Shown in pieces: positions 162 to 56,932 of a stretch of DNA of 64,000 bases. The notes under the pieces are model-generated. The model made no database searches, was not told the origin of the DNA, and worked only from the letters and a program-made list of their open reading frames with translations. The position numbers were made by a program, and so were the translations under genes. Every line of letters begins with the position of its first letter. The first letter of the stretch is position 1. Source of the stretch: Thiohalomonas denitrificans (GTDB lineage Bacteria > Pseudomonadota > Gammaproteobacteria > Thiohalomonadales > Thiohalomonadaceae); contig DYFR01000018.1 in assembly GCA_020725115.1 (NCBI GenBank), forward strand, positions 11,579-75,578, read 5' to 3'.

Positions 162-302
162 CAGACGGCAGACTGGAGGAAAGGCGGGCTTAGATTGAGT
201 TCGGAGCTGGAGTATATATAATTCCCCGACTGCACTCCAGGCTATCTCCCGTGGGGTGCTGCGACTCTCTATCTCAGGAATGCAACAGGAAGGATGGTAC
301 AC

Positions 303-572: not shown

Positions 573-1183
573 GCGTGGCGCGGCGCGCCTCCGTGCTGTT
601 GCTGGTCGCTTATCCCGTTGCCGTTCACTACGGCGTGATCACCACCGACTACAGTCCGGCCGTGCTCGTTCTGGCGGTCATCGCCGGCATGCTGGCCGGC
701 AATTGGCGCGGCAGTTTTCGCGTCTTGCACGCACTGGCCGCGGTGCTGCTGGTGATGCTGACGGCACTGGCGCTGGCCGACCGTTTTGCGCTGCTGCTGT
801 GGCCGCCTTTATTGATCTATTTTGGTTTGGCGGTGCTGTTTGCCCTGACTCTTCTGCCGGGGAGGCAGCCCCTGGTGACGCGTATCGCCACGTTGCTTGA
901 TGGTGAGCTGGATACGGCGGCGCTGCGCTACACCCGGCGGGTGACCGCGGCCTGGGCAGTGTTTCTGTGTCTGCTCGGCGCGGTCAGTTTGTTGCTGGCC
1001 TGCTGCGGCAGCCGCGAGCTGTGGTCGCTGTTCACCAATCTGTTGGGTTATATCCTTGTCCTCGGTTTCTTCCTGGCCGAATTTTCACTGCGTCGCCGCT
1101 GTCTGCCGCAATTGCCGCGGCGCAGTTTTGCCGGCTTCATGGCCGCAATGGCGCGCATCGATCCCCGGAGCTGGCGGCAGTGA
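569..1183 (+). CDS. integral membrane protein (ApeG-like position)
   Basis: Several hydrophobic helices. ATGA overlap with the ACP stop. High GC3. Confidence 0.65.
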   Translation: MSVARRASVLLLVAYPVAVHYGVITTDYSPAVLVLAVIAGMLAGNWRGSFRVLHALAAVLLVMLTALALADRFALLLWPPLLIYFGLAVLFALTLLPGRQPLVTRIATLLDGELDTAALRYTRRVTAAWAVFLCLLGAVSLLLACCGSRELWSLFTNLLGYILVLGFFLAEFSLRRRCLPQLPRRSFAGFMAAMARIDPRSWRQ

Positions 1184-8487: not shown

Positions 8488-8927
8488 GTGTGGAGCGCGA
8501 TGAACTCTGCGACCTCATTCCCCATGCCGGCAGCATGTGTCTGCTCGACCGCGTCGAGCAGTGGGATGAGGAGCGCATCGTGTGCAGCAGCCTGAGTCAC
8601 CGCCGTGCCGACAATCCGCTGCGCACTGCTGACGGTCTGGCCGCGGTACACGGTGTGGAGTACGGCGCCCAGGCCATGGCGGTGCATGGCGGCCTGCTGG
8701 CGCGCCGCGCCGGTGCGCGACTGCCTGCCGGCTATCTGGCGGCGCTGCGTGAGGTGCGTCTGCACACGGCGCGGCTGGATGAAGTGGACGGGGCGTTGCA
8801 GGTCACTGCGGTGCGCCTGATGGCGGAGGGTGGCAATCTGATGTACCGCATCGAGGTCAGGGGCGCGGGACGGGTACTGGTGGAGGCGCGGGTGACGGTG
8901 GCAGACATGAGCGGGAGAACGGCATGA
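8484..8927 (+). CDS. hotdog-fold dehydratase/thioesterase-like protein
   Basis: 147 aa with ATGA overlaps on both sides. Position between the KS pair and the reductase matches APE clusters. Confidence 0.6.
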   Translation: MSVERDELCDLIPHAGSMCLLDRVEQWDEERIVCSSLSHRRADNPLRTADGLAAVHGVEYGAQAMAVHGGLLARRAGARLPAGYLAALREVRLHTARLDEVDGALQVTAVRLMAEGGNLMYRIEVRGAGRVLVEARVTVADMSGRTA

Positions 8928-9643
8928 AGCGCGCACTGGTGACCGGCGGCAGCGGCGATATCGGCGCCGCCATCTGCCGCCGTCTGGCGGCGGAGGGGGT
9001 GGAGGTGCTGGTGCATGCCAACAGCCAACCGCAGCGCGCCGAGGTCGTATGCGAAGAAATCATCGCGGCCGGCGGCAAGGCCGCGGCGCTGGTGTTCGAC
9101 GTCACCGACGGGGCAAAGTGCCGGGAGATACTCGCTGCCGAGACCGGGCGCGCACCGATCCAGATCGTGATCAACAACGCCGGCCTGCACGACGACGCAC
9201 CGCTCGCCGGCATGTCGGAAGAGCAATGGCGGCGGGTGATCGATGTGTCGCTCAACGGCTTCTACAACGTCACCCAGCCGCTGCTGTTGCCGATGATGGC
9301 GACGCGCTGGGGACGCATCGTCAGCCTGTCGTCCATCGCCGGCGTGATGGGCAACCGTGGCCAGGCCAATTACGCCGCGGCCAAGGCCGGCTTGCACGGT
9401 GCCAGCAAGTCGCTGGCGCTGGAGCTGGCCTCGCGCGGCGTCACCGTCAACGTGGTGGCCCCGGGGATCATTGCCGGACGCATGACCGGACAGGTGTTCG
9501 ACAAGGACGCCATCAAGACCCTGGTGCCCATGAAACGCGCCGGTCAGCCGGAGGAAGTGGCCGACCTGGTGGCCTTTCTTGCCTCGGAGCGCGCCGGCTA
9601 CATCTCGGGCCAGGTCATCGGCATCAACGGGGCAATGGCATGA
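8924..9643 (+). CDS. fabG: 3-oxoacyl-ACP reductase (SDR)
   Basis: TGGSGDIGAAI NAD(P)-binding motif and catalytic YAAAKAG (YxxxK). Confidence 0.9.
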   Translation: MKRALVTGGSGDIGAAICRRLAAEGVEVLVHANSQPQRAEVVCEEIIAAGGKAAALVFDVTDGAKCREILAAETGRAPIQIVINNAGLHDDAPLAGMSEEQWRRVIDVSLNGFYNVTQPLLLPMMATRWGRIVSLSSIAGVMGNRGQANYAAAKAGLHGASKSLALELASRGVTVNVVAPGIIAGRMTGQVFDKDAIKTLVPMKRAGQPEEVADLVAFLASERAGYISGQVIGINGAMA

Positions 9644-10377
9644 ACGCTGCGATGATCGTGATACCCGCCTACAACGAGACGGCGACCATCCGTGCGGTGG
9701 CGCAGCGTGCCATGCAGCACGGGCCGGTGATCGTGGTGGACGACGGTTCCACCGATGACACCGTGGCGCAGCTCGATGGTCTCGGCGTCACCGTGCTGCG
9801 CAACGAGCAGAACAGCGGCAAGGCGGCCAGCCTGTGGCACGGCATGCAGCATGCGTTGTCGCAGGGGGCGGCGGCGGTGATCTCCATCGACGGCGACGGC
9901 CAGCATGCCCCGGAGGACATTCCGCGTCTGTTGGCCGTGTCTGCCCGCCTGCCGCGGGCAGTGGTGATCGCGGCACGGTTGCGCGACCGCGACAGCGCAC
10001 CGAGGGCACGACGCATCGCCAACGGCGTGGCCGATTTCTGGGTATCCTGGGCTGCGGGACGTTCCGTCGTCGACAGCCAGTCGGGCTTCCGCCTCTATCC
10101 GGCCGAGTTGTTGCGCAACTATGTGCCGCGCCTGCGCAAGCGCGGCGGTTTTGTCTTCGAGAGTGAAATCCTGATCGATGCGGTACGGGGCGGATTCGAC
10201 TGTGTTGCGGTGCCCATCGACACGGTGTATCACGCCGGGGCGCGTCCGAGTCATTTCCGGCCGGTGGCCGATATCACCCGCATCGTGCTGATGGTGGCGG
10301 GGAAACTGTTCGCCCGCGGCATGTACCCGCAGGGCCTGTGGCGGGTATGGCGGGAGCCGGCGCGGATCGAAAATTGA
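9640..10377 (+). CDS. family 2 glycosyltransferase
   Basis: VIPAYNE start and DGDGQH (DxD) motif. ATGA overlap at 9640-9643. The track ORF 9049.. is an out-of-context extension. Confidence 0.85.
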   Translation: MNAAMIVIPAYNETATIRAVAQRAMQHGPVIVVDDGSTDDTVAQLDGLGVTVLRNEQNSGKAASLWHGMQHALSQGAAAVISIDGDGQHAPEDIPRLLAVSARLPRAVVIAARLRDRDSAPRARRIANGVADFWVSWAAGRSVVDSQSGFRLYPAELLRNYVPRLRKRGGFVFESEILIDAVRGGFDCVAVPIDTVYHAGARPSHFRPVADITRIVLMVAGKLFARGMYPQGLWRVWREPARIEN

Positions 10378-42737: not shown

Positions 42738-43298
42738 ATGAGCAAAATCATTCACCAGCAGGACATCATCGAGCGGCAGATCATCGCCATGGGCATCGCC
42801 CGCTTCGACATCGCCACCCGCAAGAAGGGCGGTTCGACCCTGACCCATGACGGTCTCTATCTCACCCAGCTCTGGGGCCTCATCGATCTGTTACGCGAAC
42901 AGAACAGTGCCGGCCAGGCCATACTGATCCGCCCCCACGGCGAACACGGCATGACCCTGCTCGGCGGGCTGAATACCGCCCGTCTCAATAAACTTAAAGT
43001 TGAAGGTTTTGAACCGGCCATCGTCGTGCAATACGGCAAGGATTTGTTCCAGGCCTGGCTCAAACACGACCGCAAACTGGATCAGGCCACCAGCGAAAAG
43101 GTGGCCAAGTGCCTGGCCGAACGCGCCGGCGTGGATGCCTCCACCACCCACTGGGACAGCTACGGCTACCTGGCCAATTTCCTCATCCCCGCCTGGCTTC
43201 AGGGCGAGGAGCAGGAGGCCTGGCTGGTGGAAGACAGCGGCAAGGTCTACAGCGCCGCGGCTGAGCTGTTGTCGAAATATTGCTTGCTCGCTGATTGA
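42738..43298 (+). CDS. RepB-primase-domain-like protein with degenerate catalytic motifs
   Basis: The pattern ILIRPHGEHGMTLLGGL...FQAWLK...GYLANF resembles the RSF1010 RepB' primase core. GGL stands where DDL is expected, and there is no TSPxNxQ motif. Confidence 0.45.
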   Translation: MSKIIHQQDIIERQIIAMGIARFDIATRKKGGSTLTHDGLYLTQLWGLIDLLREQNSAGQAILIRPHGEHGMTLLGGLNTARLNKLKVEGFEPAIVVQYGKDLFQAWLKHDRKLDQATSEKVAKCLAERAGVDASTTHWDSYGYLANFLIPAWLQGEEQEAWLVEDSGKVYSAAAELLSKYCLLAD

Positions 43299-43681
43299 CA
43301 GCCGTCCCCCTGTGACACGCTGCGTAGCGATCCCTGCCGGGACTCGGCAAGGCGAGATATCTCTGCAGCCACCTCATGAAATCTCTCTAAATCTTGTGTA
43401 GGTAAAAATCTACGCCGCATCCCTGCCGCTGCTCACGGCCGTACGGGCATCAACTTCCCGGTGAAAATGAAAACTGAGTTATGTCTTTGTTTTCATGCGC
43501 CAAATTGGAAGCATGGGGTAGTGGTTTTGTATTCCTTACTGCTACACTTTTCTCCGTCCTCAGCATAAGCAGCGGCCTTAGTTATACGGAACACAACTGA
43601 TGCGGGTGTGGCGCGGTTGTCCCGCCTTGCTTGACGCACACTCGCTGTGCTGGAAATGGAATTTGATATAGAGGGAGCTAA

Positions 43682-46600
43682 GTGACGGACAGTATTCGTT
43701 CTGACAACCGACACTCCATCACTGCGGGCGCACAGGCGCCGCGCGTGAATTCTGATGGCAGCCCAGCGGCGACGGATCGGCTTGCGGTACGCATCGTACT
43801 GATTGCGCTGGTCTATGCCGCACTGGCCTTTGCCGGGCTGTCGCTGGTTACCCCGTCTGGTTATACCTCGCCGCTGTGGCCCGCCGCCGGTTTTGCGCTG
43901 GCCGTCATTCTGATGTGCGGTTTCCGTTGCTGGCCCGGCATCTGGCTGGGCGCCTTTGTCGTTGACCTTTCGCTGGATGTCTCATGGTCGGGTGCCGTCG
44001 TCGCCGGACTGCTGGCGATGGGCACGACGCTGCAGGCGCTGCTCGGCGCACATCTGACCCGGCGCTTTCTCGCCGTCACCAATCCCCTTGCCCGGGAACA
44101 CGATGTCTGGCGCTTCCTGATCCTGGCCGGGCCGGTGGCCTGTCTGCTTGCCGCTACCGTCGGCGCACTGGTGTTATCTCTGTTCGATCGCATGACGGCC
44201 GGGGATGTCCAGGCGCAATGGCTGTTGTGGTGGACCGGCGATACCCTGGGGGTGCTGCTGTTTACCCCGCTGGTGCTCCTGGTCTGGCCCGGTTCCCGCT
44301 CCCTCTGGCCGCGTGGGGGCGAACGTGTGGCATTGCCGCTGCTGGTGACGGCGGTGCTGATGGGGGCCGGCCATGTGGGACTTGCCCATCTGGAGGCGAG
44401 CAAGGCCAAGGCCGAGGCGGACAAACTGATGGAGGATGTGTACGAAAACGGCGCGCACTCCCTGTCGATACTGTTAGAGCCGTTGCGGAGCCTGGAGCGG
44501 TTTTTCGTCGCCAGCGATGAAGTCACGCGCGAGGAATATGCCATCTTCACTGCCGGAGTCACCAAGCATGAAGGCCTGGTCTCCGTTGACTGGGCGCCCC
44601 GCGTGCCGGCGGCACAGCGTGCGACCTTCGAGAAGGCACAACGCAGCGACGGCCAGCCGGATTACCGAGTCTTCGAGCTGGATGCCGAACGGCAGCCGCA
44701 TCCCCTTGCGGAACGTAGCGTATATTTCCCGGTGCGCTGTACTGCGCCCGTGGCAGGCAACGAGGCAGTTATCGGCCTCGATCACGGATTCGAGGAACCC
44801 CGCCGCAGGGCAATGGCCCATGCCGCGGAAACCGGCGACATCGTAACCGCCTCGGTCGTCCCCTTGCTGCGCACCCAGCGCCATACGCTGCTCGCCTTCC
44901 AGGCGGTATATCCGCACGATTTTGATGCAAAGGCTGCATCTGCGACAGCACGAGAGTCTGCGCTGCAAGGGTTTATTGTCGGGGTCTTCGATATCGACAC
45001 CCTGTTCGCGTCGTTGGCACGGGGCGCTGCAAACCATCACATCGCATTCCGCATTACCGATGTCACGCCCGGCGATGCGCCGCATGTCCTGGCGGGAAAT
45101 CTGGCGGCGGATACTGTTGTGGAGTGGGGACGAACGATTCAATTCACCAATCGCTACTGGTTGCTGGAGATGCACCCGTTCGATGGTTACTGGCACCCAG
45201 GGGCCACCCTGCAATCGCGCATCTACTTCGGCTTCTCGGTATTGGCGGCGCTGCTCATTGCGTTCTCGGTCTTGAGTGCCGCCGGCCGGCAGGCAGCCAC
45301 CGAAGCCGTAGTGGTCGCCCGTACGGCGGAGCTGGAGGATGAACTGGATGCGCGTCTCGTGGCGGAGGCCGCCCTGCGGGAGAGCGAAAGCGATCTCGAT
45401 ATTACGCTTCACTCCATCGGTGACGCCGTGCTTGCCACCGATGCCGGCGGGCGCGTCACCCGCATGAACCCCATCGCGGAAAACCTTACGGGATGGCCGC
45501 TGGAGGAAGCGATGGGCCGTCCCATCGATGAGGTGTTTCACATCATCAACGAAGAGACGCGTCTGCCGTCTCCCATTCCGGTGGAGAAGGTATTGCGCAC
45601 GGGCGAAATTCACGGCCTGGCCAATCATACCGTGATTATTTCGCGCGACGGTCGCGAGTTCCACATCGCCGACAGTGCCGCTCCCATCCGCGATCAGGAC
45701 GGCAATATCCGGGGCGTGGTACTGGTGTTCCGCGATGTCGGCAAGGAGCGTGAGGCCGAGCGTGCCCTGCTGGCCAGCGAGGCGCGCTACCGTGAACTCA
45801 TCGACTATTCGCCCCTGGGGATATTCATTCAATGTGGCGGCAGCTTCGTGTTCATGAACCCCAAGGCCGTCAATCTCCTCGGTGCGCGTTCGGCGGACGA
45901 ACTCATCGGCAAGAAGGTACTGGATTTTATCCACCCGGACAGCCGGGATGCAGTGAGTGCACGGATACGTCTCCTCAATAACGACCACAAGGCAGTGCCT
46001 CCGCTGGAGGAAACCTGGTTGCGTCTCGATGGAGCGGATTTCTGCGGCGAGGCTACCGCAGTACCCTATCTGCACGAAGGCAAGCCGGGTGCGCTGGTGC
46101 TGTTGCAGGACGTATCATCCCGCAAGGAGGCGGAAGAGTTGCTGAAGCAGGCCCGCCTCGACGCCGAGCAGGCCAATCGCGCCAAATCCGCCTTTCTGGC
46201 CACCATGAGCCATGAGATCCGTACGCCGATGAACGGCGTTATCGGCATGGTGGAGATACTGTCTCAAAGCCGCCTGTCCGCTCATCAAACCGAGCTGGTC
46301 AATACCATTCGCGAGTCGGCAACCGCGCTGCTGGGCATCATTGACGACATTCTGGATTTCTCCAAGATCGAGGCCGGCCGGCTGGAGATTGAGCATATCC
46401 CCGTTTCCGTACCGGACCTCGTCGAAGGATTGTGCAATTCGCTGGTGCCGGTCGCCGCCGCAAAAGGGGTTGCGCTGAATCTGTTCATTTCGCCACGCAT
46501 TCCACCGCGGCTGCTGTCGGATGACGTCCGCCTGCGCCAGCTGCTGTACAACCTGGTCGGTAATGCCATCAAGTTTTCCGCCGGCAATCCGCAACGGCCC

Positions 46601-48145
46601 GGCGCCGTGTCCATCAGGGTCGACATCGAGACTGAGAACAAGACGCTATTTTTCCTGTCGTTCCGTGTTGCCGACAACGGTATCGGCATGAAACAGGAAA
46701 CGCTGGAAAACCTCTTCACGCCATTCACCCAGGCCGAGGTATCGACCACGCGCCGTTTTGGCGGAACGGGCTTGGGGCTGGCCATCTGCCAGCGGCTGGT
46801 GGATTTGATGGATGGCGACATCTCTGCAGAAAGCGTCCTGGACAAGGGTTCGGTGTTCACCGTAATACTTCCGTTCGAGAGTCTCGGGGAACAGCCGGAG
46901 GCCGCCGCCGTTCCGTTGGACGGTCTCGACTGCATCCTGGTAGAGAATGAACGGTTTAGTGCCTCTGATTTGCGTATCTACCTCGAGCATGCCGGTGCGA
47001 AGGTTGTCGTTGTGGATGACATTGACATGGCTGCACGCCTCGCTTCCGAGGGTGGGGGTTCGGCCGTCGTGATCCAGTATGCCGGGCGCCAGGAGCCGGA
47101 GGGGCTGGCCAGATTTGCTTCACTGCCCAACGTGCGCCACCTCTGGATAACCAAGGGACGGCGCCGGCGGGCACGGGTAGAAAAATCAGATGTGGTTACC
47201 CTGGACGGCGATGCATTGCGCCGGCACGCCCTGCTGCGCGCCGTGGCCGTTGCCGCCGGCCGGGCCTCCCCGGAAGTATTCCACGATCACAACGAAGATG
47301 ATTTCACCCGCGAGGCAGCCGTCACGCCGCCGACGGTGGCCGAGGCCCGTTCGCAGGGGCGGCTGATTCTGATCGCCGAAGACGACGATCTCAATCAGCG
47401 CGTCATCCTGCAGCAACTCCGCCTGCTCGGCTATGCCGGCGAGGTGGCTGCAAACGGCGCGGAGGCGCTGCGGCTGTGGCGGGAAGGGAATTATGCCCTG
47501 CTGTTGACGGACCTGCATATGCCGGAAATGGACGGCTATTCCCTGGCACAGATCATTCGACAGGAGGAGCGGGGCGCACACCGCCTGCCCATTATCGCGC
47601 TGACGGCCAACGCCCTGCGGGGCGAGGAGAATCGGGCCAAAGCGGTGGGGATGGACGCCTACCTGACCAAGCCCGTGCCGCTCAAGAAGCTCCGCACGAC
47701 GCTGGAGGAGTGGTTGTCTCGATCATCGTCGGACATGACCGCGGATACGGTGACGCCAGAGGAGAGAGTGCCGCGTGCGGGGCAACTGGTCGATGTGAGT
47801 TTGCTGAAGCAGTTGGTCGGAGAGGATCAGGCGACGGTGCATGAATTCCTCGCTGAATATCTGAAATCTGCTGGAAAGCTGTTGCAGGAGATACGGGCGG
47901 CCCATGCGGCAGGCGACATACGTCACGTCAGCGCCGTCGCCCATAAGCTCAAGTCGTCCTCCCGTTCGGTGGGGGCCCTGGTACTGGGCGACCTCTGTGC
48001 GGGGATGGAGAATGCGGGGAAAGAGGGGGATCGGACATTCATCGCCGAGCAGATGCAGGAGCTTGAATCAACCTGGTCGGCGGTGGAGCAGGAAATTTGT
48101 TATCTGTTGTCAGATGAGAATAAGAAACCAAAGGAGCAGGTATGA
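43682..48145 (+). CDS. hybrid sensor histidine kinase (MASE1-CHASE-PAS-PAS-HisKA-HATPase-pseudoREC-REC-Hpt)
   Basis: GAGGGAG SD and GTG start. N-terminal multi-TM region, H-box SHEIRTPMNG, G-boxes DNGIGM and GGTGLGL, receiver with DLHMPEMDG, and C-terminal Hpt AHKLKSSS. Confidence 0.9.
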   Translation: MTDSIRSDNRHSITAGAQAPRVNSDGSPAATDRLAVRIVLIALVYAALAFAGLSLVTPSGYTSPLWPAAGFALAVILMCGFRCWPGIWLGAFVVDLSLDVSWSGAVVAGLLAMGTTLQALLGAHLTRRFLAVTNPLAREHDVWRFLILAGPVACLLAATVGALVLSLFDRMTAGDVQAQWLLWWTGDTLGVLLFTPLVLLVWPGSRSLWPRGGERVALPLLVTAVLMGAGHVGLAHLEASKAKAEADKLMEDVYENGAHSLSILLEPLRSLERFFVASDEVTREEYAIFTAGVTKHEGLVSVDWAPRVPAAQRATFEKAQRSDGQPDYRVFELDAERQPHPLAERSVYFPVRCTAPVAGNEAVIGLDHGFEEPRRRAMAHAAETGDIVTASVVPLLRTQRHTLLAFQAVYPHDFDAKAASATARESALQGFIVGVFDIDTLFASLARGAANHHIAFRITDVTPGDAPHVLAGNLAADTVVEWGRTIQFTNRYWLLEMHPFDGYWHPGATLQSRIYFGFSVLAALLIAFSVLSAAGRQAATEAVVVARTAELEDELDARLVAEAALRESESDLDITLHSIGDAVLATDAGGRVTRMNPIAENLTGWPLEEAMGRPIDEVFHIINEETRLPSPIPVEKVLRTGEIHGLANHTVIISRDGREFHIADSAAPIRDQDGNIRGVVLVFRDVGKEREAERALLASEARYRELIDYSPLGIFIQCGGSFVFMNPKAVNLLGARSADELIGKKVLDFIHPDSRDAVSARIRLLNNDHKAVPPLEETWLRLDGADFCGEATAVPYLHEGKPGALVLLQDVSSRKEAEELLKQARLDAEQANRAKSAFLATMSHEIRTPMNGVIGMVEILSQSRLSAHQTELVNTIRESATALLGIIDDILDFSKIEAGRLEIEHIPVSVPDLVEGLCNSLVPVAAAKGVALNLFISPRIPPRLLSDDVRLRQLLYNLVGNAIKFSAGNPQRPGAVSIRVDIETENKTLFFLSFRVADNGIGMKQETLENLFTPFTQAEVSTTRRFGGTGLGLAICQRLVDLMDGDISAESVLDKGSVFTVILPFESLGEQPEAAAVPLDGLDCILVENERFSASDLRIYLEHAGAKVVVVDDIDMAARLASEGGGSAVVIQYAGRQEPEGLARFASLPNVRHLWITKGRRRRARVEKSDVVTLDGDALRRHALLRAVAVAAGRASPEVFHDHNEDDFTREAAVTPPTVAEARSQGRLILIAEDDDLNQRVILQQLRLLGYAGEVAANGAEALRLWREGNYALLLTDLHMPEMDGYSLAQIIRQEERGAHRLPIIALTANALRGEENRAKAVGMDAYLTKPVPLKKLRTTLEEWLSRSSSDMTADTVTPEERVPRAGQLVDVSLLKQLVGEDQATVHEFLAEYLKSAGKLLQEIRAAHAAGDIRHVSAVAHKLKSSSRSVGALVLGDLCAGMENAGKEGDRTFIAEQMQELESTWSAVEQEICYLLSDENKKPKEQV

Positions 48146-49335
48146 GAGTCCTTCTGATCGATGATGAACCCTTTGTGCTGAAGCTGCTTGCGCGACAACT
48201 TGCCAATCTTGGATTTGAACAGGTTGTCGCGATGGAGCACCCGCATGATGCGCTGGCGATGCTTGAGTCGGATCCAGGCGCATTCGATGTGGTATTTCTG
48301 GATTTGCAGATGCCCGACATGGATGGCGTCGAATTTGTGCGCCATCTCGTGCGCATCCAGTATCCCGGTGGTCTGGTGTTGTTCAGCGGCCAAGATCAGC
48401 GAATTTTGCATACGGTGGAGAAACTGGCCAATGCGCACCGGCTGCACGTGTTGGGTGCTCTTCATAAACCAGTCAATCCCGAAAAACTCAAGAAAGTCAT
48501 CGAAACGGCGCCACCGTGCCACGAGCGGGCTGCACGAAAAATCTATGCGCCCGACGAGCTGAGGCAAGCCATCCACAATAACGAGTTGTTCAATCATTAT
48601 CAGCCCCAGGTCGAGCTGGGCTCCGGCCGTGTCGTCGGTATGGAGGCCTTGGTGCGGTGGCAGCATCCGGACGACGGCCTCGTCTATCCGGACCAATTTG
48701 TCGGCATGGCGGAAGAACATGGCTTGATTGATGACCTGACGCGAACCGTTCTTGCCAACGCGCTTGAACAGGCGCGACAGTGGCATGACGCCGGCATGGG
48801 CCTTCAGGTGGCCGTGAATGTCTCCATGGATAATCTGGTAGCGCTGGATTTTGCCGATTATGTTGCCCATGAGGTCGAAAGGGCTGGCATTCCCCTCGCC
48901 AGCATCATGTTGGAGGTGACGGAAAGCCGCCTCATGAAGAACCCGCTGACGCCATTGGATATCCTCACAAGGCTGCGGTTGAAGCATATCGGTCTATCCA
49001 TTGATGATTTTGGCACCGGTCACTCATCCCTGGCGCAGTTGCGTGACATTCCCTTCGATGAGCTCAAGGTGGATCGGGGCTTTGTTCATGGCGCCCATGA
49101 CTATGCCCCCCTGCGGGCCATCGTCGAGGCCAGCCTCGGGATGGCGCAACACCTGGGAATGAAAACCGTGGCCGAGGGCGTCGAAACTCAGCAGGACTGG
49201 GATTTTCTGCGCGGCACGGGCTGTGATCTGGCGCAGGGTTACTTCATCGCAAAACCCATGCCTGCCGCTGCCGTGGTGGACTGGATGCCGGGATGGGAGT
49301 CCAGACAGCCGACACTCATCAAGAAAAAGTCATGA
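48142..49335 (+). CDS. response regulator with EAL c-di-GMP phosphodiesterase domain
   Basis: REC (LLIDDE, DLQMPDMDG) plus EAL (EALVRW, DDFGTGHSSL). ATGA overlap with the kinase gene. Confidence 0.9.
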   Translation: MRVLLIDDEPFVLKLLARQLANLGFEQVVAMEHPHDALAMLESDPGAFDVVFLDLQMPDMDGVEFVRHLVRIQYPGGLVLFSGQDQRILHTVEKLANAHRLHVLGALHKPVNPEKLKKVIETAPPCHERAARKIYAPDELRQAIHNNELFNHYQPQVELGSGRVVGMEALVRWQHPDDGLVYPDQFVGMAEEHGLIDDLTRTVLANALEQARQWHDAGMGLQVAVNVSMDNLVALDFADYVAHEVERAGIPLASIMLEVTESRLMKNPLTPLDILTRLRLKHIGLSIDDFGTGHSSLAQLRDIPFDELKVDRGFVHGAHDYAPLRAIVEASLGMAQHLGMKTVAEGVETQQDWDFLRGTGCDLAQGYFIAKPMPAAAVVDWMPGWESRQPTLIKKKS

Positions 49336-50489
49336 ACAGCACAGCAGTCATTCTTATCGCAACCGACGTGGTATCCGATGCGGAACTGGTCCGCAAACTG
49401 CTGCGGGATGAGTTCGACAATATTGCTCTCTCCACTGATGCAAACATGGCCGTGACGGATTTTGAGGGCCATCGGCCGGACGTACTGGTTCTTGCATTCA
49501 ACACGCTGGAGAAGGCCGAGCGCTACTATCTCGGCCTGTATCGCCTGAGCGACAAAATCCACGCCATGCCGCACCGGACGCTGATACTGTGCAACAAGGA
49601 CGATCTGAAACGGGTGTATGAGTTGTGCAAAAGGGAATATTTCGACGACTACATCCTGTTCTGGCCCATCCCCAACGATGCCTTGCGGCTGCCCATGACG
49701 GTTCACCACGCGCTGCGCCAGATCACCAGTGAGGCCGCCCCGACGGCGGGACAGCTCGCGGCCCAGGCCAGGCGCCTGTCCGAACTGGAAGGCCTGCTTG
49801 AGCATCACTCGGTCACCGGAGGGCAGCGGGCCGAGCAGGCGAGCAATACCGTACGGCAGGCGGAGGCGGAAGTTCTCGCCGCCATTGACAAGTTCTATTC
49901 CAGCCTCACGACAGGTGGCATAGAGGCAATGGTGGATGTGCGGGATGCCGCCGGCCTGCAACAGGAGTTAACCCGCCTCAAGAACACAGGCATTGCGAAA
50001 TCATTTCAATCGGTGGATGCCGCGGTCAGGCCAGTGCGTCAATGGGCAGAGGGCCTGAAGGCCGACCTGGCGCCGCAGCTAGAATCCACACGAGCACTCC
50101 AGCAACTGGCGAGCAAGGTGCGCCCCGTGGTGCTGGTCGTCGAGGATGATGAATACCAGCACAAGCTGCTTGCCCAGATACTGACAGACGAGAACCTGGA
50201 ACTTGTTTTCGTCACGAATGGCGCCGAGGCATTGAGCGTACTGAGACGCCGCAGGCCGGATCTCATCCTGATGGACATCAACCTGCCCGGAGATAACGGA
50301 GTCGAAGTGACCCGTCGCATCAAGTCGGTCGAAAAGTTCGCCGATATCCCGGTCGTCATGATCACGGGCAAGGGCGCAAAAACCATCGTGATCGACAGCC
50401 TGAAGGCCGGGGCGGTTGATTTCATCGTCAAGCCATTCAGCAAAACCACGCTGGCCACAAAAATACGCAAGATACTGGCGGGGGCGTGA
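49332..50489 (+). CDS. two-domain response regulator (N-terminal pseudo-receiver, coiled coil, C-terminal REC)
   Basis: The C-terminal REC has VVEDDE, DINLPGDNG and KP. The N-terminal REC-like fold has Ala where the phospho-Asp is expected (LVLAFN). ATGA overlap at 49332. Confidence 0.8.
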   Translation: MNSTAVILIATDVVSDAELVRKLLRDEFDNIALSTDANMAVTDFEGHRPDVLVLAFNTLEKAERYYLGLYRLSDKIHAMPHRTLILCNKDDLKRVYELCKREYFDDYILFWPIPNDALRLPMTVHHALRQITSEAAPTAGQLAAQARRLSELEGLLEHHSVTGGQRAEQASNTVRQAEAEVLAAIDKFYSSLTTGGIEAMVDVRDAAGLQQELTRLKNTGIAKSFQSVDAAVRPVRQWAEGLKADLAPQLESTRALQQLASKVRPVVLVVEDDEYQHKLLAQILTDENLELVFVTNGAEALSVLRRRRPDLILMDINLPGDNGVEVTRRIKSVEKFADIPVVMITGKGAKTIVIDSLKAGAVDFIVKPFSKTTLATKIRKILAGA

Positions 50490-50789
50490 TCCCTGGTCTC
50501 ATTGTGCGGAACAGTGCACCAGCATGGGGCGGCGGGCACACGCCAGCAGCGGACATTGCCCGATGCCTCAAGGCGCCTGTAGTCCAATTCCTACAGACAG
50601 GCATAAGGCATACTGGTAGTGTCTGTGCTAATGGGTAACGGTTAGGTGAGAATGTGCCGATAACCTATTGTGGCCGTTGATAAAAACGCCGCCCCCATGG
50701 CAGGCATGCAAATGTGATAGGCCGCAGCGTTGCTAAAAGTATTAATGCGGCGTCAGTCTAAATAACTGTTATGTGTCAAAGGAGTAAGC

Positions 50790-51149
50790 ATGAAGCACAG
50801 CCTCATATTGGTTGCCTTAAATCAAGAGCAAATTAGTAAAGCAAAAGAAGTCAATGGAAACAGAAAGCAGATCACGCATGCATTGATCTGCGGGCCGTTT
50901 GGGCAGATATTTGGGACAGAAAAGCAATGCATGAAATACTATTCTGCATGGATTGAGGTATTTCCTCTGTTATTCGATAAAGGAATTGAAACTGATTCCC
51001 ATGAGATATCGGACTACAGAAGCACCTTTAATTTGGTTAATAAGCTAATTTCGGCTCACGATCCATTGGAATCAACTAATGACACCCTTATGCAGGGTCG
51101 TCGAAATCAAAAAGAAAAGAAAAGTATTTTTTCCTGGTTGTTCGGATAG
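50790..51149 (+). CDS. hypothetical protein (cassette 1, ORF A)
   Basis: GGAG SD 5 nt before the ATG, which lies 21 nt after the cassette boundary. 119 aa with no recognisable motif. Confidence 0.6.
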   Translation: MKHSLILVALNQEQISKAKEVNGNRKQITHALICGPFGQIFGTEKQCMKYYSAWIEVFPLLFDKGIETDSHEISDYRSTFNLVNKLISAHDPLESTNDTLMQGRRNQKEKKSIFSWLFG

Positions 51150-51163
51150 ATACAAGCATTGAA

Positions 51164-51212
51164 CCATTTGCCATTTGCCATTTGCCATTTGCCATTTGCC
51201 ATTTGCCATTTG
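51164..51212. repeat. perfect heptanucleotide tandem repeat (CCATTTG)x7
   Basis: Read directly. Seven identical units, intergenic, ending 48 bp upstream of the lipoprotein ATG. Confidence 0.97.
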
Positions 51213-51260
51213 CTAAGCGATTTTTGCGGAAATGGCATGGAACAAAATTAAGGATTAGTG

Positions 51261-52343
51261 ATGCGATACACGATAATTATTTTGGTTGCACTACTTGCTG
51301 GGTGTGAAACGGTTGGCTCTCTTGTTAAGCCACAAAAAAGTGCGGATGAACGGTTTGCTGAAAGGGTTAAGCAGTGGTCAGATTCGCAAATTCAAACGAT
51401 GCTGGCTGATTTTGATTCTGGCTTGCCATTGGTGAGCGGCGATAAAGTTACGTTTATACCCTCAGATAAAGCGCCAGAAGTTTATAAAAAAACGGATTCT
51501 GAACTGCTAAGGCTGAGAGCGGGTCTGGCGAGTAACGAGAAAAATATGGGTGAGTTGAAAAGTATTCATGATGTTAGTCGCGCTACATCTTCTGACTTAG
51601 ACAAGACCCGATCTTGGTTTGAGTCGGAGCTTTCGAAATATTCGAATGATTTTCATGCGGCTGTAGTGCAGCAAAGTACTGCGGGACGAATGAGTTTTGA
51701 TGGTTCTGCATACACAACGGAAAACTTGCTGAGTTATTGCGAGTCACATGGCATACGGCAGGGACACTGCAAGTCAGAGCCGTACAATAGGGACGGCAAT
51801 GCTATTGCCGTAATTATTCTCTCTAAGAGTTTTATGCGAAATCACCCGGAGTATCGCGACTATTTTGAGTGGGTATCTCGCGAAAAAGAATCATTTGATA
51901 AGATTGCTGATGATGCTGCAAAACTAGGCACTGAATACGAATCAAAAATGTTTTTGAAGAAAGCGTCATCAAGTGGGTGCAAAAATATGTCTCGCATAAA
52001 CTTTATAGACAACCTTCCACTTGCCGCTCAGGTTGGTTACTCCAACTTTCGTCCCGAAAAAACATCGGTATATGATTTGGGTCACTTCAAAGTGCTGCAA
52101 ACACAATCGGATGGTGTTCTGTTGTCAACCACATACCCAGGCAGCCATAACGTTCCGCTTATATACGCCTACACGCAAAAGAAGTATACGGACGGGCATA
52201 CGTTCCAACCAGGAGAGCAACTTGCTTGTGTTGCAGGCGCGAAAGAGTATGTCTCAATTCTTGGGGTAAAAAAGCGTGTAATTTCATTCCGCACTATAAA
52301 CGACAACAATAAGTACTATTTCTTTTTGAAAACACAAGAATAA
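51261..52343 (+). CDS. lipoprotein, unknown function (cassette 1, ORF B)
   Basis: MRYTIIILVALLAGC lipobox and an AAGGA SD. 360 aa with no recognisable domain. Confidence 0.7.
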   Translation: MRYTIIILVALLAGCETVGSLVKPQKSADERFAERVKQWSDSQIQTMLADFDSGLPLVSGDKVTFIPSDKAPEVYKKTDSELLRLRAGLASNEKNMGELKSIHDVSRATSSDLDKTRSWFESELSKYSNDFHAAVVQQSTAGRMSFDGSAYTTENLLSYCESHGIRQGHCKSEPYNRDGNAIAVIILSKSFMRNHPEYRDYFEWVSREKESFDKIADDAAKLGTEYESKMFLKKASSSGCKNMSRINFIDNLPLAAQVGYSNFRPEKTSVYDLGHFKVLQTQSDGVLLSTTYPGSHNVPLIYAYTQKKYTDGHTFQPGEQLACVAGAKEYVSILGVKKRVISFRTINDNNKYYFFLKTQE

Positions 52344-52858
52344 TGTGTGCGGGAGGCTCGGTGGGAAATCTTAATCTTGATGACGCACTTGGATTCTTCC
52401 GGGAGTTAGTAGATCCTAATTTCTGTGAGTTTTACTGGGACTATCAATCTGACGAAGAGTGTGGAAGAGACAAGCTGGTCCGAGTATTTAGAAAGATGGT
52501 TAATCTTTGCCTGACGCTCAATCATCAGGCAGACAAGGTGGCCCACAAGCTTCAGTATAAATGTGCTCGCGCGCTAATAGTAGAGGTTACCAAACATTAT
52601 CCATCTGAAGGGGCCGCGCTAAATGCAGTTAGGGAATTCTCAAACGACATTAAACACAAATCCAAGCTTGATCAAAATTATACAACAAGAAAAAGAGGGC
52701 TCAATGACCAGCCGCAAGCTGGCTCAGACTTACCTGAGTGGTACTTTGTTTCAAAAAATGGAGAAAGAATTGCTGTGTGTGATGGCACTGTCGATGCCTA
52801 CCTATTTTGGGGAAAATGGTTTGCTGGAGAGCGTGAACTTTTACAAAAAAACACATAA
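52343..52858 (+). CDS. hypothetical cytoplasmic protein (cassette 1, ORF C)
   Basis: The start overlaps the ORF B stop (TAATG). 171 aa. The stop codon lies inside the attC inverse core. Confidence 0.65.
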   Translation: MCAGGSVGNLNLDDALGFFRELVDPNFCEFYWDYQSDEECGRDKLVRVFRKMVNLCLTLNHQADKVAHKLQYKCARALIVEVTKHYPSEGAALNAVREFSNDIKHKSKLDQNYTTRKRGLNDQPQAGSDLPEWYFVSKNGERIAVCDGTVDAYLFWGKWFAGERELLQKNT

Positions 52859-52921
52859 CACGATGCTTCACCCGACCAAAAACCGCTTTGCGGTTTTTGT
52901 CGGGTGAGCTAGGCGTTAGGT
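52853..52921 (+). other. attC site a
   Basis: ACATAAC-acgat-GCTTCACCCGAC...GTCGGGTGAGC-taggc-GTTAGGT. Long imperfect hairpin with two bulged bases. Confidence 0.75.
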
Positions 52922-52940
52922 CTTGCAACAAGGAGTTGTC

Positions 52941-53333
52941 ATGAAAATCAATTCTCTGTCCCCATGCATCACGACCACCAAGGTCGAGGAGTCACGCGAT
53001 TTCTACGTGAAGCACTTTGGTGCAAAGGTCACCTTCGATTGTGGATGGTACGTCAATCTTGAATTTGAAGGAGGCGCTTCCGTTCAGTTCATGGCGCCGC
53101 AAAACGACCAGCCCGCTTGCAATCCGACAGGGCTGATGTACAACTTCAGCGTTTCGGATGTCGATGCCGAGTATCAGTCACTCACCGCATCCGGTCTGGT
53201 TGCCATCATGCCCATTGAAGACCACCCTTGGGGGGATCGTGGTTTTGCCGTTCAAGACCCGAACGGCATCGTTCTATACGTCTATTCTGAGCGTGAGCCA
53301 AGCCCTGAGTTCAAGCAATATTACAAGTCCTGA
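52941..53333 (+). CDS. VOC/glyoxalase-bleomycin-resistance family protein (cassette 2)
   Basis: AGGAG SD. About 130 aa with the paired beta-alpha-beta-beta-beta pattern typical of glyoxalase-fold proteins (weak, by eye). Confidence 0.7.
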   Translation: MKINSLSPCITTTKVEESRDFYVKHFGAKVTFDCGWYVNLEFEGGASVQFMAPQNDQPACNPTGLMYNFSVSDVDAEYQSLTASGLVAIMPIEDHPWGDRGFAVQDPNGIVLYVYSEREPSPEFKQYYKS

Positions 53334-53337
53334 CGCC

Positions 53338-53697
53338 ATGTCCGCCGACCGCATCTCGAAACTGCTCGAAGACATTAGACTTCTCAATCCAGATCGCTTC
53401 GAGCTTGTGCAAGAACTGAGGGAAATCATCCTTGGTTTGGATTCCTCCGTGTCCGAGGAAGTGAAATACGGCGGGTTCTTGTTTTCCGCTGACCAGCCGT
53501 TTTGTGGTGTTTTCTCCTACGCAAAGCACATTTCGTTGGAGTTCGGTGCAGGCGCATCACTTCCAGACAAGTTCAACGTACTGGAAGGTAAGGGAAACAT
53601 ACGCAGGCACATAAAGCTGTTATCGGCGCAGGACATTTCGGAGAAGCACGTTCGTGAGTATCTCGTTTTGGCCCTCAAGGCGTCGGCTAAGCCATGA
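53338..53697 (+). CDS. DUF1801 (YdhG-like) domain protein (cassette 2)
   Basis: 119 aa with the pattern EEVKYGGFLFS...HISLEFGAGA typical of this family. Confidence 0.65.
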   Translation: MSADRISKLLEDIRLLNPDRFELVQELREIILGLDSSVSEEVKYGGFLFSADQPFCGVFSYAKHISLEFGAGASLPDKFNVLEGKGNIRRHIKLLSAQDISEKHVREYLVLALKASAKP

Positions 53698-53698
53698 G

Positions 53699-53773
53699 AC
53701 CTAACCACAGCGTCAACTCGGACGCCCGACTCCGCTGCGCTCCGTCGGGCGCCGGTTACGCTGGCCGTTAGCT
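53699..53773 (+). other. attC site b
   Basis: ACCTAAC-cacag-CGTCAACTCGGACGCCCGAC...GTCGGGCGCCGGTTACG-ctggcc-GTTAGCT. Confidence 0.75.
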
Positions 53774-53789
53774 TAAAAGGAATGGTGGG

Positions 53790-54296
53790 ATGCCATTATC
53801 CGAGATTAGAACTTATCTTATTGAACTTACGAGATGCAGATATAAAGGTCTGTATGAAGAGTTAGAAATAAGATGTGTCGTTATCATTTCGGTGCTGTCA
53901 TTTACATCGTATAAAACAATATATGAGGTATTTGTCGTGAGTTTCGGTTTTTATGTGAATATCGTTCTTCTTGTAACTTCGATTTGGCTTTTATCCATTC
54001 TCTTAGGTATCTCTTTCTTTGAGAAGAAAAAGAAGAAATACATTATTGAATCAGATGGCTTCAAATGGCGAGTAACTAGATATATAAATAACAGCCTTTC
54101 GGTAGATGAAACCCCTTTGTGTGGTAAAGACGAGGTTCCTTTAGTGCATGATGGACAGGTACTTTATTGCCCGAAGTGTAATGAAGTGAAAATGAAATCC
54201 GGTGATCTGCTTAACTTCTTACATAGAGTAAACTCAAAAGCCGAGGCAGATAGGGATAGTTCTATCAAAGTTCCTAAACGTTATATCCCAGCATAG
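53790..54296 (+). CDS. hypothetical membrane protein with C-terminal CxxxC...CPKC zinc-ribbon-like motif (cassette 3)
   Basis: Two hydrophobic helices, a K-rich stop-transfer segment (EKKKKKY), then CGKDE...YCPKC. Confidence 0.6.
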   Translation: MPLSEIRTYLIELTRCRYKGLYEELEIRCVVIISVLSFTSYKTIYEVFVVSFGFYVNIVLLVTSIWLLSILLGISFFEKKKKKYIIESDGFKWRVTRYINNSLSVDETPLCGKDEVPLVHDGQVLYCPKCNEVKMKSGDLLNFLHRVNSKAEADRDSSIKVPKRYIPA

Positions 54297-54298
54297 AA

Positions 54299-54358
54299 AG
54301 CTAACAAATAGATCAAGCTGACGCATAAAAGACTGCGCAGCTTATCAAATCGTTAGCT
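54299..54358 (+). other. attC site c
   Basis: AGCTAAC-aaata-GATCAAGCTGACGCA...TGCGCAGCTTATC-aaatc-GTTAGCT. Two bulged bases. R'' and R' are perfectly complementary. Confidence 0.8.
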
Positions 54359-54372
54359 GCTGAAGGGAAGTC

Positions 54373-54789
54373 ATGAGCATAGAATTTAAAATCAACGCTC
54401 CGGTATCCACCGATCAATTCATCGGCTTGCTTCGTAAATCAACACTTGGAGAGCGCAGACCCATTGAAGATCGTGAGTGCATGGAAGGTATGGTTAAAAA
54501 TAGCAATCTGATGGTTACTGCTTGGCGTGGCGAGGAACTGATAGGCATAGCGCGCTCAATGACGGATTTTCATTATGCCTGTTATCTCTCTGACCTGGCG
54601 GTTCATATGAAATATCAGAGAAGTGGTATAGGAAAGAAACTGCAAGTAAAAACTCAGGAGCAATTAGGCCCGAACTGCAAGTTGATTCTGGTTGCAGCCC
54701 CTACCGCCAACTCATATTACGAACATATTGGTTTTACGAACAATCAAAGGTGTTGGGTTCTTGAACGTGATAAAAATATCAGCAGCTAA
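54373..54789 (+). CDS. GNAT-family N-acetyltransferase (cassette 4)
   Basis: Acetyl-CoA motif QRSGIGKKL. 138 aa. The stop codon lies inside the attC inverse core. Confidence 0.85.
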   Translation: MSIEFKINAPVSTDQFIGLLRKSTLGERRPIEDRECMEGMVKNSNLMVTAWRGEELIGIARSMTDFHYACYLSDLAVHMKYQRSGIGKKLQVKTQEQLGPNCKLILVAAPTANSYYEHIGFTNNQRCWVLERDKNISS

Positions 54790-54846
54790 CGAATAAGGTT
54801 AGATTGTGAGAGCGAAGCGAACCACAATCTGAACCGATTGTTGGAC
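54784..54846 (+). other. attC site d
   Basis: AGCTAAC-gaata-AGGTTAGATTGTG...CACAATCTGAACC-gatt-GTTGGAC. Confidence 0.7.
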
Positions 54847-55056
54847 AAGCCCGGCCCCGGAGTCACTCACACGCTATGAAAATATCTTTTTGAATTTCAC
54901 GGGTTCCATTAGCGCCAAGCTTGAATTCCCGTGTATCTCGTTACCATTGCGATAACGTAATCTGCTGGATTTTTCGATTAACACCCTTATCCGGGCCGAG
55001 CGCTTCTCTCTGCTTATGGAAACAGAACGTCCCGCCAATCGAAGGAGCGGGTGCGA

Positions 55057-55815
55057 TTACATAACCGATGCACCTGCTAAGGCATCGAGCGGGAAACGTC
55101 TCGGAAGCAATACAGGGAGCCGTGTACGCACGATCTTCATTTCGCCACCACAGCAGCGGCAGGTTAGCGGGGGTCGTTTCCTTAACCACGCCGTTGAGCG
55201 AGCCGGATCGAGATTGAGCAGATAGTGCAGCAACTGGATCATCCGTTTGCTGTTGGGATGCAGAAAGCCGAAGTTACGGGCGCGTCGAAATCCCTTCGGC
55301 AAAACATGTTGTAAGAGCAACCAAAGGAAATCCTCGCCGTCCAGGGTGCGCATCTCGCGCTCTTTTGTCTTGCTGTCTTGATAGTGAAAGCTGACCTTGC
55401 CATTGCCACAGGCCACAATATCCTTCTCCTGAAGCACACCCCGATAAAGGTAACGACCGAGATAGACCAGCGCCTTGTCGCCATTGCCGACGTGCTTGCA
55501 GTCCACGACCCAATTTTCGGGATAGTGCTTTGGCAATGCCAGTCCTGCCTGGGTGATCTCATCAAGCATTTTTGCCCGAAACACCTTGGCCAACGCCTTG
55601 TGATTGAAGAGGTAAGGCTTTTTCTTCGTCGTCCTGGTACGCCACAGCCGGCGCTTGGCATCAATGGCGGCAGCGGGGATCGCCAGATGCACATGGGGAT
55701 GAAAATCCAGACGTCGGGAATGGGTATGTAACACCGCAATGGCACCGGGCGTGCCCCGAAGCTGCCGGTCATTGAGACTGAAGGCATGCACCGTCTCCCA
55801 GGCGCACTGCATCAT
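55057..55815 (-). pseudogene. IS91-family (HUH/Y2 rolling-circle) transposase, N-terminally truncated
   Basis: HUH region HTHSRRLDFHPHVH, tyrosine motif YLGRYLYR and C-terminal CRCCGG. The ~130-150 aa N-terminal zinc-binding part is missing. An in-frame stop lies 6 codons upstream of the first Met. Confidence 0.8.
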
Positions 55816-55831
55816 CAGGGCAGGAAACCGG

Positions 55832-55879
55832 GGTCAGAACACAGATATCGCTAATATTAGTAGAATATGTGTTCTGACC
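55832..55879. repeat. 12-bp perfect inverted repeat at the truncation point of the transposase
   Basis: GGTCAGAACACA, 24 AT-rich nt, TGTGTTCTGACC. Confidence 0.55.
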
Positions 55880-55970
55880 GATCCACCGGACGCTGCGCGA
55901 TAAAGCCGCGCAGCGCCGGTGACATCCATGTTCGTGTATTACTTGGTCCATGCATTCCCATCCATTGACA

Positions 55971-56753
55971 ATGCCAAGATTACTCATATCCATTCTTCTT
56001 TTCTGTTTTTCCGTTTTCGCTCGTGCAGAAGATGCGGATATAGCTGTTCTGTTCAGCAAAGTGGGGGTTTCAGGAACCATTTTGATCGAATCATCAAAGA
56101 CTGGTCAGCGTTTTATTCACAACGACGCCCGTTCGAAGCAGGCTTTCGCCGCCGCGTCCACATTTAAGGTGCTTAACACCCTTATAAGTCTTGAGGAAGG
56201 CGTGATAGCTGGAGCCGATTCGACCATTCGATGGGATGGTACTCTTTACGAGCTCGCCGATTGGAATCGCGATCAGACCTTGGAAACTGCATTCAAGGTC
56301 AGTTGCGTGTGGTGCTATCAGGAGTTGGCGCAGAGGGTTGGGGCTGCAAAATACCCTGCTTATATCCGCAGTTCGCACTATGGTGAGTTGCGTGAACCGT
56401 TTGATGGAACGCAATTCTGGTTGGACGGTTCGCTAACTATCAGCGCGGAGCAGCAGGTGGCTTTTCTCAAACAGTTGGTCACGGGCCGCTTGCCATTTCG
56501 TGCGAGTAGTTACGCTACTCTGAAGTCCATCATGCTTACAGATAAAACGCCGTACTATCGGTTGTACGCCAAGACTGGCTGGGCGACTCGTAATGCACCG
56601 GCCGTAGGCTGGTATGCCGGTTATGTGGAAGTCGCCGAAGACATATGGCTGTTCGCACTGAATATTGAAACCCGTAGTGCAGCCGACTTGCCTCTCCGCA
56701 AACAGACTACCCTTGAGGCATTTCGGGTCAAAGGTATTCTGCCGGCGAATTGA
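55971..56753 (+). CDS. class D (OXA-type) beta-lactamase
   Basis: Signal peptide [19 protein letters not shown]. Motifs STFK, SCV (SxV), KTG and FWLDGSL. Confidence 0.85.
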
Positions 56754-56758
56754 TGCTC

Positions 56759-56791
56759 GAAACCGTGTAATAAGGGATGTATCACGGTTTC
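56759..56791 (+). terminator. hairpin after the beta-lactamase gene
   Basis: GAAACCGTG, 15 nt, CACGGTTTC. Weak U-tract. Confidence 0.35.
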
Positions 56792-56932
56792 TCCCGGACG
56801 ATCATTGTGCATTGGCACGCCCGCTCAGGGTCGAATGCAGCCATCCACCCCGCGCAGCCGCTGTTCCCCATCGATGCCTTGAGGAATAGCACCGCCTGGT
56901 ACATTCTCGCGGCAGTCGGCTATGCTGCCGGT

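Follow-up and report, generated by a model that had tools for sequence, protein, structure and literature searches.

This report concerns a 64,000-nucleotide stretch of a Thiohalomonas denitrificans assembly (GCA_020725115.1, contig DYFR01000018.1), hereafter the window, in which a run of small genes lies between a response-regulator gene and an alpha/beta-hydrolase gene. An initial annotation had read this run as an integron-type cassette array without an integrase in cis, i.e., a cluster of attC sites lacking integron-integrase (CALIN; IntegronFinder, Cury et al. 2016, PMC4889954). An attC covariance model, cassette junctions compared across loci, and tblastn searches with IntI proteins bear this out, and we hold it highly probable that the segment from 50768 to about 56760 is such an array. 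The response-regulator gene on the left ends at 50489, 278 bp before the array. Cassettes follow in the order 1 (three open reading frames [ORFs]), 2 (VOC plus DUF1801), 3 (membrane protein), and 4 (GNAT), with every cassette ORF on the + strand. Their G+C content is 36-53%, and that of the whole region from 50.6 to 56.8 kb 36-54%, versus 60-65% in both flanks. The co-orientation, the AT richness, and the typically cassette-like cargo on which the initial annotation relied are thus all supported. The array occupies a variable chromosomal spot, delimited by a conserved left junction and the alpha/beta-hydrolase gene (Table 1).

Table 1. Features of the cassette array and of its left flank (positions in the window)
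Feature	Position	Strand	Description
Conserved left junction	50711-50767	+	Last base is the G of G|TTATGT; attI-like orphan candidate
Cassette 1	50768-52915	+	2148 bp, three ORFs
Cassette 1 ORF1	50790-51149	+	119 aa; no Pfam family
Cassette 1 ORF2	51261-52343	+	360 aa; lipoprotein-like N-terminus; no Pfam family
Cassette 1 ORF3	52343-52858	+	171 aa; no Pfam family
attC site 1	52853-52921	+	ACATAAC...GTTAGGT; R1 34.0 bits, E 1e-6; fold z = -7.3; bulges on R''-L'' arm
Cassette 2	52916-53767	+	852 bp; VOC/glyoxalase gene 52941-53333 and DUF1801 gene 53338-53697 (Pfam)
attC site 2	53699-53773	+	ACCTAAC...GTTAGCT; R1 31.0 bits, E 7e-6; three extrahelical bottom-strand bases
Cassette 3	53768-54352	+	585 bp, between sites 2 and 3; 168-aa predicted membrane protein, CxxC...CxxC, 53790-54296
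attC site 3	54299-54358	+	AGCTAAC...GTTAGCT; R1 35.3 bits, E 6e-7; bulged G and T on bottom strand
Cassette 4	54353-54790	+	GNAT acetyltransferase gene 54373-54789; truncated behind AGCTAAC (54784-54790), the inverse core of this cassette
Site 4 (chimera)	54784-54846	-	attC of inverted IS91-type cassette (GTCCAAC...G on minus strand) fused to R'' box of GNAT cassette
IS91-type cassette remnant	54790-55822	-	Inverted, 5'-truncated; transposase fragment 55057-55815, 252 of ~369 aa
Palindrome	55832-55879		48 nt, near-perfect, GGTCAGAACACAGATATCGCTAAT / ATTAGTAGAATATGTGTTCTGACC; between truncated transposase gene and attC remainder
attC remainder	55880-55936	+	L''-loop-L' 55880-55923, R' GTTCGTG 55930-55936; R'' box missing
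Distal unit	55937-56759	+	Predicted class D beta-lactamase gene 55971-56753, 260 aa
Hybrid sensor kinase gene	43682-48145		In block absent from L106
Response regulator plus EAL domain gene	48142-49335		In block absent from L106
Response-regulator gene	49293-50489		In block absent from L106

attC sites and cassette boundaries

An integron integrase would deliver each cassette as a circle and would recombine the folded bottom strand of its attC, with the crossover directly after the G of the GTTRRRY box (G|TT). Because the crossover falls at this point, each cassette opens with a hexamer complementary to its own closing inverse core. The four proposed sites read as quoted in the initial annotation, and the openers TTATGT (50768), TTAGGT (52916), TTAGCT (53768), and TTAGCT (54353) are each the exact complement of their own closer. 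Taken alone, this four-of-four agreement is weak evidence: 2 of the 24 possible pairings of these openers and closers match fully. It becomes strong when joined with the same rule at other loci, i.e., TTGGGT/ACCCAAC in a compensatory variant of the VOC cassette (TTAGGT/ACCTAAC in the window), TTGGAC/GTCCAAC in the IS91-type cassette described below, and three perfect pairs plus one G-T pair in the related locus L106. The boxes had been called RYYYAAC-type; the AAC and GTT cores are indeed present, but ACATAAC, AGCTAAC, and GTTAGCT each depart from the strict consensus at one position. Because most boxes deviate in this way, a strict RYYYAAC...GTTRRRY scan of the whole window returned no pairs 50-150 nt apart. 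A relaxed scan combining AAC...GTT with folding energy produced many false positives in GC-rich DNA and was abandoned for a covariance model.

The model, R1, was built from 12 aligned attC sites from elsewhere, with the R and L helices modeled. Six belong to class 1 plasmid cassettes (aadB, aadA1, aadA2, aacA4, ereA, and a ZIP-transporter cassette) and six to metagenomic arrays, the latter being nonhomologous to the window sites. Searched with filters off against both strands of the window, R1 ranked sites 3, 1, and 2 as its top full-length matches (31-35 bits), with the best unrelated match at 8.7 bits (E 4.6). The covariance-model check proposed with the initial annotation, run here with this independent model, is therefore clear for sites 1-3 (E about 1e-6). 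In 23 other loci, R1 yielded 71 matches, every one on the gene strand, and it recovered attC sites outside its seed set (catB8, 55.6 bits; aac(6')-29, 51.7 bits; a cyanobacterial plasmid integron, 32 and 29 bits). The full + strand sites (starting at 52853, 53699, and 54299) are spaced at 0.6-0.85 kb and, with the attC remainder at 55880, provide the at least two same-strand sites within a 4-kb clustering distance that define a CALIN.

Sites 1-3 combine R''/R' and L''/L' pairing with an unpaired central spacer and extrahelical bases on the R''-L'' side of the bottom strand. Bulged bases on this arm are the pattern of experimentally studied attC sites. Site 4 shows the architecture on the minus strand only, with one extrahelical base, and this single bulge lies on the arm opposite to that of sites 1-3. 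The single-stranded bottom strands of sites 1 to 4 fold with z scores of -7.3, -3.6, -5.0, and -3.3 against shuffled sequences. It is scarcely credible that these hairpins are instead terminators or repetitive extragenic palindromic (REP)-like intergenic repeats in an AT-rich genomic island. They do stand directly after stop codons, and Rfam has no matching family: at both gathering and permissive thresholds it gave no attC-like match, the top one being a spurious streptococcal small RNA. An intrinsic-terminator scan, however, picks up none of the four sites. Moreover, the sites fit a model seeded with genuine attC sites of resistance cassettes and carry their bulges on the expected arm, and the cassettes recur in other arrays, one of them beside an IntI, with breakpoints at G|TT.

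These recurrences make the locus a worked example of cassette boundaries proven by cross-genome breakpoints, beyond model score alone. Other loci show presence or absence of cassettes exactly at the points first proposed, which upholds G|TT as the recombination junction. Units recurring in different arrays with ends at G|TT are cassette 1 (left end), cassette 2 (both ends), cassette 4 (left end and R'' box), and the IS91-type cassette (both ends). As judged by comparative sequence analysis, the cassettes are thus mobile units ending at G|TT. The gene pair of cassette 2 occurs in nine other loci with five different upstream and four different downstream neighbors, and all breaks fall at G|TT. 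In L091, VOC plus DUF1801 is the first annotated gene pair past a divergent tyrosine recombinase, a true IntI with 55% identity to IntI1 over its full length and the integron-specific insertion. In Allochromatium vinosum, the VOC gene is accompanied only by a decayed fragment of DUF1801, and attC is lacking, so this case is uninformative on junctions.

Loci L084-L086, which are long arrays of short ORFs sharing one orientation, hold homologs of ORF1 of cassette 1, as does L082, a small array between ubiG and gph. An unrelated attC lies upstream of the homolog in both L084 and L082, and the sequence resembles the window precisely from GTTATGT onward; the left end of cassette 1 is seen in three contexts. 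Linkage of ORF1 to ORF2 is also present in L084, and the R1 scan found no attC match inside cassette 1. Between these two ORFs, the heptamer GCCATTT is repeated in about seven copies (51163-51211); the heptamer occurs once in the L084 spacer, and the repeat number is therefore variable. The L082 array (8698-10360) is itself a second small integrase-less array on a chromosome, and its contents are an antitoxin-PIN toxin pair, an ORF of 156 aa, and the ORF1 cassette, which breaks off 7 bp past the stop codon.

Cassette 4 aligns over window positions 54340-54790 with L115 3968-4418 at 88% identity, the alignment ending at AGCTAAC, and its junctions are independently supported at the R'' box and the left end. 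In L115, the GNAT gene is flanked by attC sites of 40.9 and 50.6 bits, and the window lacks the 50.6-bit one. Relatives of the GNAT protein are found at 94% identity in many metagenome contigs and at 85-88% in Gallionella, Sulfuriferula, and Acidithiobacillus. The cassette 3 protein has no Pfam match and forms a singleton cluster, and this cassette has no independent context.

An inverted IS91-type cassette and the distal end of the array

The initial annotation took site 4 as the attC of the GNAT cassette itself, the adjacent IS91 remnant as an outside element truncating the array, and the absence of GTCCAAC downstream of TTGGAC as the sign of that truncation. None of these three points withstands comparison with other loci. 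Past AGCTAAC, where homology to L115 stops, L115 continues with its own canonical attC and the window with a different hairpin. R1 matches site 4 on the minus strand only (15.5 bits, E 0.08). This hairpin (54791-54846) accompanies an IS91-type cassette in six further contigs (L131-L136), five of which have distinct right flanks. By this alignment evidence, site 4 is a chimera in which only AGCTAAC belongs to the GNAT cassette. The remnant is the content of a unit that opens with TTGGAC, and intact copies of this unit do have GTCCAAC after TTGGAC.

In L131, the unit (111-2505) consists of a tyrosine-recombinase gene followed by a full-length IS91 transposase gene and the same hairpin. Taken together, the window hairpin, the next 210 bp, and the transposase fragment show 87.6% nucleotide identity to L131 1468-2503, and the window copy has lost its 5' third, including the tyrosine-recombinase gene and the transposase N-terminus. 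The fragment scores 229 bits with NCBIfam transpos_IS91 (cutoff 125) over profile positions 113-355 of 356, and it matches Pfam Y2_Tnp (E 9e-44). Profile positions 1-112 and Zn_Tnp_IS91 are absent, so the Y2 HUH domain lacks the N-terminal zinc-binding domain that goes with it in the IS91 family; the window transposase is a remnant, not an intact insertion sequence. From the TT of G|TT, the sequence past the hairpin reads TTAGAG, TTATGT, TTAGCC, TTATGC, or TTGGGC in L131-L136 and TTAGCT in the window, and the left end, G|TTGGAC, stands behind three unrelated sequences in L131, L132, and L134. Stem variants differ by a compensatory change (T to C with A to G), and the unit closes with GTCCAAC, so a circle would rebuild a complete attC. 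Because its flanks vary at G|TT on both sides and its ends would rebuild attC, the tyrosine recombinase plus IS91 transposase unit is, on sequence grounds, a 2.4-kb gene cassette. The divergence of the flanks at both G|TT points and the TTGGAC/GTCCAAC ends also led us to reject the hairpin as a terminal structure of IS91 itself. The recombinase of the unit shares 29% identity with IntI, without the IntI-specific insertion. A blastn search of 54790-55900 against plasmids gave no match.

In all three contexts with readable orientation (the window, L132, and L134), the unit is inverted relative to its host array; in L132 and L134, the neighboring attC lies on the strand opposite to that of the unit. 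We considered site 4 as a rare aberrant inversion by IntI, but "rare" had to be rejected given the same inverted arrangement in L132 and L134. A search of the literature returned no description of such an orientation rule, which is not proof of absence; the present data document an IS91/tyrosine-recombinase cassette that is inverted wherever array orientation can be read. On the top strand of the array, the junction is AGCTAA|C, i.e., AA|C of the host R'' box. A junction at this position would result from recombination between the bottom strand of the incoming attC and the top strand of the resident one, and the inverted insertion of the 2.4-kb cassette would then have split the attC of the GNAT cassette at its R'' box. 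A later deletion would have removed the 5' part of the insert together with the adjoining R'' box, leaving the 48-nt palindrome and the L''-L'-R' remainder. In L134, a reverse-transcriptase gene (RVT_1; 214-804, minus strand) lies beside the attC that flanks the IS91 cassette and may represent an attC-targeting group II intron.

The array had been thought to end at site 4, but the attC remainder lies farther on and is followed by the beta-lactamase gene. R1 matches the remainder at 55880-55923 (31.1 bits), covering model positions 13-57 only, and 42 nt are 100% identical to attC sites of the L092 and L095 arrays. The palindrome before it, which has no other copy in the window or any fetched locus, may be the scar of an excised element. 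The predicted beta-lactamase falls in class D by NCBIfam bla_class_D_main (259.8 bits, cutoff 250), with STFK and KTG in its translation. Against blaOXA-198_like it scores 359.7 bits and does not reach the cutoff of 515, which makes it a relative rather than a member of the OXA-198 family, the nearest one. Its homologs are also 260 aa long, and relatives at 82-87% identity, one named from Accumulibacter, are common in metagenomes. L125 is 87% identical in nucleotide sequence over window positions 55948-56759; there too the gene follows an attC-like site (15.3 bits), and homology ends 6 nt past the stop codon in both loci. The gene is therefore a probable cassette, and the environmental array ends in a class D beta-lactamase gene whose product is a relative of the cassette-borne OXA-198 family. 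Just past its stop codon, at 56754-56795, lies a 9-bp inverted repeat (GAAACCGTG ... CACGGTTTC) too short for an attC and without R1 match. The annotated start of the hydrolase gene (56777) falls inside this repeat, and homologs suggest a true start near 56960.

The left junction and the missing integrase

A tblastn search with two IntI proteins in all six frames of the window gave as its best match a 72-aa segment inside the hydrolase gene (E 0.009, 28% identity). As the initial annotation had stated for the 279 bp to the left, no intI is recognizable there, and the search found nothing near 50.5 kb. Neither intI nor any other tyrosine recombinase is present within 50 kb to the left or 9 kb to the right, where the right side ends, and the left junction holds no intI remnant. 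The array thus lacks an intI adjoining it, as a complete integron would have. Like a CALIN, it has no intI in cluster distance and no pseudogene within 10 kb, the right side covering 9 kb. The further claim that no attI can be recognized was too strong, since the left junction is conserved before a different first cassette in L106.

L106 comes from a related organism, whose RepB-like and hydrolase genes have 87-90% nucleotide identity to those of the window. Window positions 50711-50774 and L106 915-978 share 81% identity over 64 nt. Homology stops at GTTA, followed by a different first cassette: the window continues as GTTATGT and L106 as GTTAGGT, each matching (in L106 by wobble) the inverse core of its own first cassette. 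The break at 50767/50768 is followed by resumption of homology at about 56899, and L107-L110, which represent a third lineage, diverge at this right-hand point as well. The L106 array has at least three attC matches and not one cassette in common with the window; this is therefore read as cassette turnover since the split from the L106 lineage, presumably after intI had been lost from this position. The left junction has no R1 attC match and, by eye, no similarity to the attI region of L091, and a metagenome scan with its 19-mer AATGTGATAGGCCGCAGCG returned four chance matches with no wider homology. We read the conserved sequence as a candidate orphan attI-like site. The array probably descends from, or is served in trans by, an integron whose integrase is elsewhere or lost.

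The three signaling genes to the left of the array (43284-50710 vs L106 715-914) are absent from L106, in which 246 bp separate a RepB-primase-like gene from the array junction. For the response regulator next to the array, an exact lookup gave no match, and the closest relatives in a species-level genome set are betaproteobacterial metagenome-assembled genomes with at most 61% identity; this precluded a synteny comparison. Promoter prediction gave nothing sigma-70-like in the left flank, and expression of the array would depend on internal promoters or on transcripts reading through from the response-regulator gene.

Among the origins of CALINs, Cury et al. list two that would each explain the locus differently (PMC4889954). 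The first, loss of intI, would make the array an inert relic of a chromosomal integron, frozen since, with the differences between the window and L106 predating the loss or reflecting independent losses. The intI-free surroundings, the destroyed attC of the last intact cassette, the decay of the IS91 insert itself, and the left flank without a predicted promoter all fit such a relic. The same integrase-less left junction with no common cassette, despite flanking genes 87-90% identical, does not: it is improbable that intI was deleted twice independently with the same junction left behind, and turnover after a loss requires an integrase in trans. We therefore regard the relic as a serious but improbable alternative. 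The second, insertion at a secondary site, supposes that the locus was never an integron and that a trans-acting IntI put cassettes at a fortuitous intergenic GTT. The left flank, which gives no attC-model match and resembles none of the known attI sites, fits such an origin. Two diverged lineages, however, use the same G|TT with different first cassettes behind about 60 nt of conserved upstream sequence, and such reuse is expected of a preferred site, not of a chance target; the arrays are also multicassette in both lineages. This makes insertion at a secondary site quite unlikely.

Four points weigh against an intact account of the locus as an integron-derived cassette array. The left junction could be conserved simply through common descent. 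At 2.1 kb and with three ORFs, cassette 1 exceeds the usual length, and no second locus supports its right end. The attC remainder is not the attC that the GNAT cassette has in L115, so more may have been deleted than proposed above. Finally, R1 recognizes no attC after the beta-lactamase gene in either the window or L125. The array is nonetheless a genuine, if ordinary, CALIN, one more case of a known kind; CALINs are common, and a single case changes little by itself. Of greater interest are the inverted cassette, the junction without an integrase, and the OXA-like gene at the distal end, although each is seen in few contexts. In particular, different cassettes behind the same integrase-less junction in a relative make the question of whether a CALIN is live or dead testable at a defined site. 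More speculatively, the IS91/recombinase unit might be a dedicated parasite of integron arrays that carries its own attC and enters a resident attC inverted, through the top-strand R'' (AA|C) instead of the usual bottom-strand R'. If so, it would fix the host cassette in place because the attC of that cassette is split. Separately, and on the same tentative footing, the left junction might be a working orphan attI that lets a distant integrase exchange cassettes.

Comparison with known systems

The locus resembles the CALINs surveyed by Cury et al. (PMC4889954) in having at least two same-strand attC sites less than 4 kb apart, no intI nearby, a small array (83% of CALINs have fewer than 6 attC sites), mostly unknown cargo, and a transposase gene inside. 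It departs from typical CALINs in that its left junction is conserved in a relative with different cassettes, hinting at an orphan attI, and in having one attC split by an inverted cassette and a distal beta-lactamase gene; resistance genes made up 31 of the 1933 CALIN cassettes of that survey (PMC4889954). With environmental chromosomal integrons such as L091 it has the VOC plus DUF1801 cassette in common, and its attC type is found in the related arrays L092 and L095. Unlike L091-type integrons, the window has no intI, demonstrated attI, or Pc promoter. Site 3 shares its length, box layout, and two extrahelical bases with the 60-nt attC sites of class 1 cassettes (aadA1, aadA2, and aadB), its 35 bits being scored by a model half built from class 1 sites. 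In contrast to those sites, its stem is AT-rich, its cargo is different, and it has no Tn402-type platform.

The IS91-type cassette has its closest described counterpart in ISShvi3 of Shewanella, an IS91-like element beside an attC that, according to one paper, forms "a new gene cassette structure." The window-type unit is likewise an attC-associated element inside an array, made up of a tyrosine recombinase and an IS91 Y2 transposase, the likeness being one of described structure. It differs from ISShvi3 in having both boundaries (G|TTGGAC ... GTCCAAC-attC-G|TT) in several contexts and in being inverted wherever readable. Other selfish elements that target attC in one orientation are IS1111-attC insertion sequences and group IIC-attC introns, the introns lying opposite to the cassettes. 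Unlike either of these, the IS91 unit uses different enzymes and AA|C and G|TT crossover junctions and carries an attC of its own.

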